Origin: Escherichia coli | Lineage (GTDB): Bacteria; Pseudomonadota; Gammaproteobacteria; Enterobacterales; Enterobacteriaceae | Assembly (NCBI RefSeq): GCF_003334385.1 | Contig: NZ_QOWN01000029.1 | Length of the DNA: 59,866 bases | Strand: one strand, 5' to 3' | Shown here: piece after piece, positions 35,659 through 39,819 of the stretch | How positions within the stretch are numbered: the stretch's first letter is position 1 | How the letters are laid out: every line of letters starts with the position of its first letter | Notes under the pieces: generated by a model | Told to the model about the DNA's origin: nothing | Databases searched by the model: none | What the model saw: only the letters and a program-made list of their open reading frames with translations | Translations under genes and position numbers: made by a program

Positions 35659-37083
35659 CTACTCTAAATCTTCCCCATTACTGGCAATCATTTTTTTATA
35701 CCACCAGAATGATTTCTTACGCGTGCGCGTCAGCGTACCGTTGCCTGCGTCGTCACGGTCAACAAAGACAAAGCCGTAGCGTTTGCTCATTTCACCCGTA
35801 GAGGCGGAAACTAAATCAATACAGCCCCATGTGGTGTAGCCCATCAGCGGAATGCCGTCTGCAATCGCTTCGCCCATTGCGCGGATATGTTCGCGTAAGT
35901 AGCTGATGCGATAGTCGTCGTTAATCTCGCCATTGGCAGCAAATTCATCTTTTGCGCCCAGGCCGTTTTCCACCAGAAACAGCGGCTTCTGATAACGATC
36001 GTACATCATATTCATGGTGATACGCAGACCGAGTGGATCAATTCCCCAGCCCCAGTCGCTCACCTGTAGATACGGATTACGCAGCGATTTCACCACGTTC
36101 GCCGCACTGCTGTTGTTGGCGTTCATCTCCGCCGAGGCGCAGCGCGAGGCGTAATAGCTGAAAGAGACAAAATCGACGGTGTTTTTCAGGATTTCATCAT
36201 CGCCCGGTGCTTTGTTGATGGTTACCCCTTTTTCGCGGAATACGCGGGCAGAGTAAGCCGGATACGTGCCCCGCGCCTGCACATCGATAAAAAACAGGTT
36301 TTCCCGGTCTTTCTCCAGCGCCGCCCAGACATCTTCCGGCTTGCAACTGTAAGGGTAGAAGTTACCGCCCGCCAGCATACAGCCCACCTGATTTTGCGGG
36401 TTAACCTCATGGGCGATTTTGGTGGCTAGCGCACTGGCAACCAGCTGGTGATGCGCGGCCTGATATTTCACCTGATCCTGATTTTCACCTTCTTCAAACA
36501 CCAGACCCGCGCCGGAGAACGGGCTATGCAACATAATGTTGATTTCATTGAAGGTTAGCCAGTATTTCACCAGACCATCAAATGCTTCAAAGCAGGTTCT
36601 GGCGTAGCGGCTGAAAAACTCCACCAGCTTGCGGTTACGCCAGGAGCCATATTCGGTGACCAGATGCATCGGCACATCGAAGTGGCACAACGTGACCAGC
36701 GGTTCGATACCGTACTTTTTACACTCTTCAAAGACAGAACGATAAAAAGCAATGCCCTGCTGATTGGGCGTGATTTCATCGCCCTGCGGAAAGAGACGGC
36801 TCCAGGCAATTGAGGTACGGAAAACCTTGAATCCCATCTCTGCCATCAGGGCGATATCTTCTTTATAACGATGATAAAAATCCGTCGCCTCATGGCTGGG
36901 ATAAAACTCGTCATCTCGCAACTGAAAACGTTTTTCCAGCCCCAGTTTCACCGCCATTCGATGCTCGCCGTGTGGGATCATATCGACAGTGGTCAGACCT
37001 TTGTCACCTTCACGGAACGCACCTTCAGACTGGTTGGCGGCAAGCGCGCCGCCCCATAAAAAACTTTCTGGAAATACTGACAT
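35659..37083 (-). CDS. ascB: 6-phospho-beta-glucosidase (GH1)
   Basis: 474-aa product from [13 protein letters not shown] with GH1 motifs (TFNEIN, ENG). Confidence 0.95.
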
Positions 37084-37091
37084 TTTCATCC

Positions 37092-38549
37092 TCAATTAAG
37101 ACTTACTTCTTTGGCGACGGTCGGTTGTACGCTCTGATACTTTCGCGCCTGGGCAGCCGCTTCCTCAACAGGAATATCCTCAAAGCCGAGCAACAGTGTG
37201 AGGATAAACGACAGCACCACCGCCAGCGCCATGACCGCGAACACCCAGACGATGCTCATTGGATTCGCCGGATCGAAGAACTGCACGCTGGTAAATAGCC
37301 CCGGCGCTGCCATTGAGTGGCTGGCAAGCCCCGCCATACCGGCAACCGCGCCGCAAATAAAACCGCTGATAAGACTGGCGATAAGCGGACGTTTCAGGCG
37401 GATCGCCACGCCATATAACGCCGGTTCGGAAATCCCCGCCATAATGGCTGATGCCGCCGCAGCCAGCGCCGTCTGACGCAGTTCCGGGTTTTTCGTTTTC
37501 CACGCCACTGCCAGTGATGAACCGCCCAGCGACAGGTTAGCGCCGATCTCTGACGGCATGACCATCCCTTCTTTGCCGGTTTCGGCAATGGTCTGAATGA
37601 TGGTTGGCGTAAAGACGCGGTGCATCCCGGTCATTACCAGCAGAGGCCACAGCGCGCCCATAATGGCGACTGAAAGCCAGCCCAGATAACCATGAATGGT
37701 GTAAACCAGCGCCGAAATGGCGCTACCGATCCAGATACCAATCGGGCCAATCAGCAGGATTGCCAGCGGTGCGGCAATCAACACAATCAGCATTGGTTTG
37801 AGGAAGTTTTTGGTCACCGCCGGTGTAATGCTGTCCACCCAGCGTTCGATATATGACAGGCACCAGGTCATCACCAGCGCCGGGATCACCGTGTAGGTGT
37901 ATTTCACCGCGGTGACCGGAATCAGGGCAAATTCGACATGTTCACCCTGGGCCGCTTTCGCCATCAGTTCAATAAAACTCGGATGTACCAGCACACCCGC
38001 GATGGCAATCGCCAGCGACATATTGGTTTTAAATTTGATGGCGGCAGATGCCGCGACCATCAGCGGCAGGAAGAAGAAAGCACCGTCACCAATCACATTC
38101 AGAATGGTTAAGGTCGGCGATCCTTTTGTCAGCACGCCGCTCATCTCGAGGATCATTGCCAGCAGTTTGACCATCGATCCGCCGATAATCGCCGGGATCA
38201 GCGGTGACATGGTGCCGATCAGCGCATCGAGGATCCCCGCACCAATGCGACGTAGCGTGAGTTTGGGTTTACCCACGGGCTGTGCGGGCTGCATATCTCC
38301 CGGCAGCAGGCTGACGACTTCCTGAAAGGCTTGTGAAACGGTATTGCCGATAATCACCTGACACTGGTTGTCACTACGTACCACGCCGAGCACGCCGGGG
38401 ATGGTTTTTAACGTCGGGCTGTCGATAAGTGCATCATCTTTGATAACAAAGCGCAACCGCGTCATACAGTGCGTGACCGCCGAGATGTTATCAACGCCGC
38501 CCAGTGCCGCTATCACCGAGCGTGCCAGCGCCGCATAATTTTTGGCCAT
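37092..38549 (-). CDS. ascF: PTS arbutin/cellobiose/salicin-specific EIIBC component
   Basis: 485-aa ORF, N-terminal EIIB CxTRLR motif plus EIIC membrane domain. Confidence 0.95.
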
Positions 38550-38805
38550 CGGATTTTATCCTGTTATCAGTAGGGTAGATGTAGTTGTTATCAGTCGACG
38601 TGACGGAAAAATGCCGATGCTGAAACGGAATTAAGAAACCGGTTTCACAAAATCATGAATGGTTGTCACTAAATAAGCAAGAGAGTGAATTGTTCATTTT
38701 TTATATTTGTGAAACCGGTCACCTGAATATTTTTCCCGCCGATTGTGCAAGGACAATCGGCAAACGGTGCAGTACACTGCGTTGATTGCGTGTAAAGGGA
38801 TGAAA

Positions 38806-39819
38806 ATGATGACGACGATGCTGGAAGTGGCGAAGCGCGCCGGGGTTTCAAAAGCGACCGTTTCCCGCGTGCTTTCAGGTAATGGCTACGTCAGCCAGGA
38901 GACTAAAGATCGCGTGTTTCAGGCGGTAGAAGAGAGCGGTTACCGTCCAAACTTGCTGGCGCGCAATCTGTCGGCGAAGAGTACTCAGACGCTGGGGCTG
39001 GTAGTGACCAACACGCTTTACCACGGCATTTATTTTAGTGAATTACTCTTTCATGCCGCGCGAATGGCGGAAGAGAAAGGGCGGCAGTTGCTATTGGCAG
39101 ATGGTAAACACAGCGCAGAAGAAGAGCGCCAGGCGATTCAGTATCTGCTGGATCTGCGCTGCGACGCGATCATGATTTACCCGCGTTTTTTAAGCGTGGA
39201 TGAGATCGATGACATCATTGACGCGCACAGTCAGCCGATAATGGTGCTTAATCGCCGCCTGCGCAAAAACAGCAGCCATAGCGTCTGGTGCGATCATAAA
39301 CAGACCAGTTTTAACGCCGTGGCAGAGTTGATAAACGCCGGGCATCAGGAGATTGCTTTCCTTACCGGCTCGATGGATTCCCCCACCAGCATTGAACGTC
39401 TTGCCGGGTATAAAGACGCGCTGGCGCAGCATGGTATTGCGCTCAATGAAAAACTTATCGCTAACGGTAAATGGACGCCTGCCAGCGGGGCCGAAGGGGT
39501 AGAAATGTTGCTCGAACGTGGGGCTAAATTTAGCGCGTTAGTTGCCAGTAACGACGATATGGCGATAGGTGCGATGAAAGCGTTACACGAGCGCGGCGTA
39601 GCGGTGCCAGAGCAGGTGTCAGTTATCGGATTCGATGATATCGCTATTGCCCCCTACACCGTTCCGGCGCTCTCCAGCGTAAAAATTCCGGTGACTGAGA
39701 TGATTCAGGAAATTATTGGACGGCTGATTTTTATGCTCGATGGCGGGGATTTCTCACCGCCGAAAACCTTCAGCGGAAAACTGATCCGCCGCGACTCACT
39801 CATTGCTCCTTCGCGATAA
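38806..39819 (+). CDS. ascG: LacI/GalR-family repressor of the asc operon
   Basis: 337-aa product from MMTTMLEVAKRAGVSKATVSRVL (HTH); start chosen among clustered ATGs at 38800-38811, so the exact start is uncertain by a few codons. Confidence 0.85.
   Translation: MMTTMLEVAKRAGVSKATVSRVLSGNGYVSQETKDRVFQAVEESGYRPNLLARNLSAKSTQTLGLVVTNTLYHGIYFSELLFHAARMAEEKGRQLLLADGKHSAEEERQAIQYLLDLRCDAIMIYPRFLSVDEIDDIIDAHSQPIMVLNRRLRKNSSHSVWCDHKQTSFNAVAELINAGHQEIAFLTGSMDSPTSIERLAGYKDALAQHGIALNEKLIANGKWTPASGAEGVEMLLERGAKFSALVASNDDMAIGAMKALHERGVAVPEQVSVIGFDDIAIAPYTVPALSSVKIPVTEMIQEIIGRLIFMLDGGDFSPPKTFSGKLIRRDSLIAPSR

Follow-up and report, generated by a model that had tools for sequence, protein, structure and literature searches.

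The asc β-glucoside locus of a K-12-related Escherichia coli: a canonical, uninterrupted ascG-ascFB operon

The asc genes of Escherichia coli, whose name refers to arbutin, salicin and cellobiose, constitute a textbook "cryptic" operon. The AscG protein represses both ascFB and prpBCDE (PMC6550539). Two AscG-binding sites are present at ascFB, the insertion of IS186 into ascG activates the operon, and no effector or inducer of AscG is known, arbutin, salicin and cellobiose included (PMC3505978). When studied with a synthetic promoter, AscG repressed strongly from position +1 but was almost without effect from position -61 (PMC8667592). Here, we describe the asc locus on contig NZ_QOWN01000029.1 of the E. 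coli assembly GCF_003334385.1; it occupies positions 35659-39819 of a stretch of 59,866 nucleotides, which is referred to below as the window. An initial annotation of this DNA had read the locus as an intact ascG gene that keeps a K-12-like asc operon silent.

The bgl operon (bglGFB) resembles asc in that it encodes a β-glucoside permease of the phosphotransferase system (PTS) together with a phospho-β-glucosidase of glycoside hydrolase family 1 (GH1), and it has likewise been called cryptic. Expression of bgl is governed by the BglG antiterminator and by H-NS-mediated silencing, whereas asc stands under the control of a LacI/GalR-type repressor. The AscF permease matches the enzyme IIABC models TIGR01995 and NF007335 (BglF-type), both below their cut-offs, and differs from its bgl counterpart by lacking an enzyme IIA (EIIA) domain. 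The asc genes are regarded as having arisen by a duplication of bgl (PMC4488073). With respect to the repressor, the best family-level matches of AscG among the NCBIfam models are GalR and GalS, with scores of 222 and 221 bits that lie far under the respective equivalog cut-offs of 557 and 555, and CcpA structures are matched at E ~1e-48. Palindromic operators centred on a CG step, and two such operators flanking the promoter, are features that AscG shares with GalR, GalS and CcpA; the AscG operator sequence is distinct from theirs, however, and AscG differs further in being without a known small-molecule effector (PMC3505978).

We estimate the probability at about 90% that the asc genes of the window are the canonical, already described ascG-ascFB locus of E. 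coli in its standard, uninterrupted form. The limits 35659-39819 extend exactly from the stop codon of ascB to that of ascG. With the start codons taken from the RefSeq annotation of the asc locus of K-12 strain MG1655, the three genes are:

35659-37083, minus strand: ascB, 474 amino acids, GH1 6-phospho-β-glucosidase (NF007356)
37092-38549, minus strand: ascF, 485 amino acids, PTS enzyme IIBC (EIIBC) permease (NF007311)
38809-39819, plus strand: ascG, 336 amino acids, LacI/GalR-family repressor, divergent from ascFB

The program-made list of open reading frames (ORFs) gave them as 35659..37095 (minus strand), 37092..38549 (minus strand) and 38743..39819 (plus strand). None of the three frames contains an internal stop codon, and a gap of 8 nucleotides separates the ascF stop codon from the ascB start codon. 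As in annotated MG1655, and with the same order and spacing, the locus is located between hycI and hydN-hypF. Used as a megablast query on a set of 5426 complete E. coli genomes, which underlies all presence counts by megablast and k-mers given here, positions 35400-40000 matched annotated ascB, ascF and ascG genes and the flanking hycI and hydN genes. Across the window as a whole, the identity to MG1655 is 99.6% over 59.8 kb; the source strain is related to K-12 but distinct from it. A position-by-position alignment of 7601 bp around asc with MG1655 contains two substitutions and no insertion or deletion, and it is because of this indel-free alignment that asc can be said to lack an insertion sequence. 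The genes, their order, orientation, lengths and hycI/hydN neighbours are those of K-12 ascG-ascFB (b2714-b2716), and the AscF and AscG proteins are 100% identical to their K-12 counterparts (for AscG, 0 differences from WP_001394680.1). Apart from the host, the locus differs from K-12 in a single AscB residue (V465M, base 35691; 473 of 474 residues are the same) and in intergenic base 38661, which is G here and A in K-12. The statements of the initial annotation that all three genes are full length and free of insertion sequences are borne out by uninterrupted frames, end-to-end family matches and this alignment; the ORFs, the NCBIfam, domain and Protein Data Bank (PDB) matches and the K-12 annotation likewise confirm the gene identities it had assigned, including that of ascG as a divergent LacI-family gene.

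The AscF protein scores 1025 bits against the equivalog NF007311 (PTS cellobiose/arbutin/salicin IIBC; cut-off 722), and this match extends over residues 1-485 of 485. Its EIIB part is recognized by the EIIB_glc model TIGR00826 (55 bits, cut-off 45.75) and carries the phosphorylation-site motif CMTRLR, with the cysteine at residue 28, in the form C-x-T-R-L-R typical of the PTS Glc family. Since AscF covers just positions 1-468 of the 618-position β-glucoside IIABC model TIGR01995, it is without an EIIA domain and needs EIIA in trans; which EIIA protein serves AscF we can only infer.

The AscB protein matches the 6-phospho-β-glucosidase model NF007356 over its entire length (1086 bits, cut-off 623, residues 1-474 of 474), and its nearest structures are a 6-phospho-β-glucosidase (6WGD; E = 4e-189) and BglA (2XHY; E = 4.5e-164). 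In GH1 enzymes, the glutamate of the NE(P/I) motif serves as the acid/base, that of the ENG motif as the nucleophile, and an S-x-x-x-x-K-R-Y motif binds the phosphate group. The corresponding AscB segments are NEIN at 179 (Glu180), VENG at 371 (Glu372) and SKRYG at 433.

In AscG, a LacI-type helix-turn-helix (HTH) domain (PF00356; residues 3-48; E = 3.4e-21) precedes a sugar-binding domain resembling periplasmic binding proteins at about residues 60-330, to which PF00532 (60-308) and PF13377 (171-330; E = 1.2e-33) are matched. Two PDB entries designated "HTH-type transcriptional regulator ascG", 3DBI (E = 6.5e-220) and 3BRQ (E = 1.8e-193), correspond to this protein. The target sequence of IS186, G4-N-C4, does not occur inside ascG; its four matches elsewhere in the window equal the chance expectation.

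The selective forces that act on the locus were assessed by comparing the window alleles of ascB, ascF and ascG with those of a B2 strain and of O157:H7. All frames are intact, and ratios of nonsynonymous to synonymous substitution (dN/dS) of 0.07-0.15 were found; hence, the asc genes are kept by selection. The asc intergenic query is present in 4699 of the 5426 complete genomes, and asc is therefore not strictly a core locus, since 727 genomes gave no match to this query.

The region between the divergent genes contains the elements that would set the expression of asc, and one further start site, known from K-12, lies inside ascF:

38550-38808: divergent control region, the 259 bp that separate the start codons of ascF and ascG
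38634-38647: putative AscG operator O1, AGAAACCGGTTTCA, one mismatch to the palindrome TGAAACCGGTTTCA, overlapping the predicted ascF transcription start
38652-38680, minus strand: predicted weak ascFB promoter, with -35 TTGCTT (38680-38675), a 17-nt spacer and -10 CATGAT (38657-38652), proposed from sequence only
38708-38723: CRP-like site, TGTGA-N6-TCACC, one mismatch, overlapping O2
38710-38723: putative AscG operator O2, TGAAACCGGTCACC, three mismatches to TGAAACCGGTTTCA
37131, minus strand: position corresponding to the K-12-reported internal transcription start of ascB, inside ascF and 1419 nt from the ascF start codon (coordinate converted here)

We take TGAAACCGGTTTCA to be the AscG consensus palindrome, presumably as given by Ishida (2009). 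With up to two mismatches allowed, O1 is its sole match in the 59.9-kb window, where 0.19 such matches would be expected. The centres of O1 and O2 are 76 bp apart, and both operators have the same sequence in K-12. In an alignment of the control regions from seven strains, among them K-12, BL21(DE3), an O104:H21 strain, a wastewater isolate, O157:H7 and a B2 avian pathogenic E. coli (APEC) strain (O2:K1), the O1 core GAAACCGGTTTCAC and the O2 core are invariant. The same holds for the hexamers of the predicted promoter, while the changes cluster in the spacer between them. Invariant operators and hexamers around a variable spacer agree with the promoter model, without proving it; as placed, this promoter would put the ascF transcription start inside O1. 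Scanning the complete window with Rfam revealed no known small RNA or riboswitch in or near asc.

The family assignments made above, taken together with what is established for PTS permeases and GH1 enzymes, suggest how the AscF/AscB pathway operates. AscF would import and phosphorylate aryl-β-glucosides or cellobiose-type sugars with the help of an EIIA domain acting in trans, and AscB would then cleave the phosphorylated glucoside. As a dimer of the LacI/GalR type, AscG would bind the O1 and O2 palindromes of the control region and, from O1, deny RNA polymerase access to the ascFB start site; from its upstream location, O2 could assist via DNA looping or through competition with CRP. The different strengths of repression exerted by AscG from +1 and from -61 of a synthetic promoter (PMC8667592) support occlusion at O1 as the main repression step, and looping and CRP competition may be auxiliary to it. 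With AscG intact and no inducer known, ascFB should remain mostly silent in the presence of arbutin, salicin or cellobiose, as it does in K-12, and the loss of AscG, classically by IS186, would switch ascFB on.

The literature concurs with the initial annotation that K-12 asc is cryptic and becomes activated by insertional inactivation of ascG (PMC3505978). Its reading of the locus, an intact ascG and a silent asc operon of the K-12 type, is supported here with five qualifications, none of which overturns it. For the proviso that this silence would last "unless induced", no inducer is known (PMC3505978). Inactivation of AscG, or replacement of the promoter, still does not lead to efficient use of cellobiose in K-12, and the phenotypes seen on arbutin or salicin plates depend also on bgl, chb and bgc (PMC4488073), all of which lie outside the window. 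The other two qualifications are the requirement for ascB on cellobionic acid, described below, and the strain itself, a K-12 relative that has a rare base in the asc control region.

Several observations weigh against the picture of an operon silenced by AscG at a defined promoter. The growth of unmutated strains on cellobionic acid requires ascB, and an internal promoter has been reported for ascB, so that the operon is not simply "off". Taken individually, the three-mismatch match at O2 and the CRP-like match are no rarer than chance at the scale of the window, and the two sites draw support from their position and from the two AscG sites published for ascFB (PMC3505978). A sigma-70 consensus scan of positions 35450-40000 returned no control-region site that reaches 9 of 12 matches; this outcome is consistent with a weak, factor-dependent promoter and maps nothing positively. 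The ascFB promoter and transcription start are predictions from the sequence only. Finally, the asc control region contains the rare single-nucleotide polymorphism (SNP) at base 38661, which might influence expression.

The ascB phenotype leads to a different view of the locus, namely that asc is not cryptic at all and represents a conditional system for another natural substrate, for example cellobionic acid. In that case, AscG would sense a ligand yet to be found, or else transcription of ascB would start from an internal promoter that AscG modulates. MG1655, BL21(DE3) and XL1-Blue grow on cellobionic acid without any mutation in asc; ascB is required for this growth in such strains, including MG1655 and BL21(DE3), and deletion of ascB abolishes it while complementation restores it (PMC4403981). 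Furthermore, a transcription start for ascB has been mapped inside ascF in K-12 (PMC4488073), and the sequence at the corresponding position 37131 is the same here. The purifying selection on the three genes and the presence of the locus in most complete genomes point in the same direction. On the other hand, AscG has no known effector (PMC3505978), the cellobionic acid study identified no transporter for this compound and demonstrated no in vitro activity of AscB on it (PMC4403981), and the window sequence does not separate a non-cryptic operon from the classical one. We regard a non-cryptic asc as a tenable proposal that stays short of even odds. Whether asc deserves to be called "cryptic" depends on the substrate, because ascB is needed on cellobionic acid in unmutated strains, and the label calls for care when a locus under purifying selection contributes to growth without an activating mutation. 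At the opposite extreme, the asc genes might be functionless remnants in decay, a bgl duplicate that has been kept by chance. The historical "cryptic" label (PMC4488073, PMC3505978) may be cited for such a view, as may the genomes that do not match the intergenic query and the control region of one isolate that carries IS1; with frames intact here, in B2 and in O157:H7, low dN/dS values, invariant operators and a growth phenotype on cellobionic acid (PMC4403981), this already disfavoured explanation is scarcely credible.

A third possibility concerns base 38661, the only regulatory-region difference from K-12 within asc. On the ascF sense strand the change is from T in K-12 to C here, at about -16 from the predicted start, and it could alter the expression of ascFB or ascG such that the strain behaves unlike K-12 despite its intact ascG. 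In favour of an effect, the 61-mer with the window allele occurs in only 3 of the 5426 complete genomes, as compared with 1449 for the K-12 61-mer, and the base lies inside the predicted promoter and between the two operators. This position is in the promoter spacer, however, next to a patch that varies more than any other part of the region and in which the B2 and O157 strains show several differences; the change touches neither operator, nor does it introduce a TG extended -10 element or improve a hexamer. The SNP is probably neutral, and altered expression is unlikely; that it measurably changes ascFB or ascG expression, and with it the use of β-glucosides or cellobionate relative to K-12, we consider slightly less likely again. 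A CRP site at this SNP was considered and rejected, as TGA (38656-38658) and TCAC (38666-38669) are 7 rather than 6 nt apart; the site overlapping O2 is the sole CRP-like one. Returning to the canonical K-12-like locus that we favour, the window presents a textbook operon in its standard form and as such matters little; for the natural signal to which AscG responds, it makes the question no more testable than K-12 does.

Insertion sequence activity at asc occurs naturally outside ascG: the clinical isolate 04A19CPO007 (NZ_CM151383.1, 3289-3986) carries IS1 in the ascF-ascG control region, with a breakpoint at about window position 38596, between O1 and the ascF start codon. In the B2 APEC strain, the gene adjoining ascB encodes an HTH-domain protein instead of hycI. 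In the window, two palindromic units of the repetitive extragenic palindromic (REP) type are found just 3' of ascB, between hycI and the ascB stop codon:

35572-35598: REP-type palindromic unit
35617-35651: REP-type palindromic unit

These units probably form 3' stem-loops of the ascFB transcript. A convincing terminator after ascB or ascG was not detected in a scan of positions 35450-40000. Their inclusion accounts for the median of 31 matches per genome that the 4.6-kb megablast query gave; for the intergenic query, the median was 1. An ORF of 79 amino acids at 35562-35801 (plus strand) was rejected as a coding gene; it appears in the ORF list because the REP units lie there, and its translation is a read-through of these elements.

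The substitutions that distinguish the window from MG1655 are not evenly spread. The first 4 kb (0-4 kb; CRISPR, iap, cysD) hold 118 of them and the segment at 42-46 kb (hypF, norW, norV) holds 35, and most other 2-kb bins have between 0 and 2; this clustering suggests patches of recombination in an otherwise K-12-like backbone. The left edge of the window falls within a type I-E CRISPR array whose end, at 100-370 (plus strand), adjoins iap. Five repeats of GTTCCCCGCGCCAGCGGGGATAAACCG with a 61-bp period are present there, the last of them with one mismatch. The intervening stretches can be aligned to K-12 only by accepting numerous mismatches and indels, suggesting spacers other than those of K-12.

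The rpoS gene (10520-11513, plus strand, start at 10520) carries an extra C at 10622 in codon 35, which changes AACCCAGT to AACCCCAGT (CCC to CCCC); the resulting +1 frameshift ends in two stop codons directly after ...VEEEPQ. The 69-mer around this position is absent from all 5426 complete genomes, and 5251 have its counterpart lacking the additional C. The insertion is either a private rpoS null allele or a sequencing error in the homopolymer. For otnK (ygbK; 3-oxo-tetronate kinase; 14476-15738, minus strand), the window encodes a protein of 420 amino acids and the gene shares 4 nt with ygbL. In the MG1655 record, one G is missing from a run of G residues (difference at 14587) and the product ends prematurely at 388 amino acids, and it looks as if the K-12 copy is the frameshifted one. 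At the right edge, three tRNA genes at 59428-59866 (plus strand), the last of which is cut by the end of the window, are the sole Rfam matches in the window and correspond to the tRNA-Ser/tRNA-Arg cluster downstream of csrA in MG1655.

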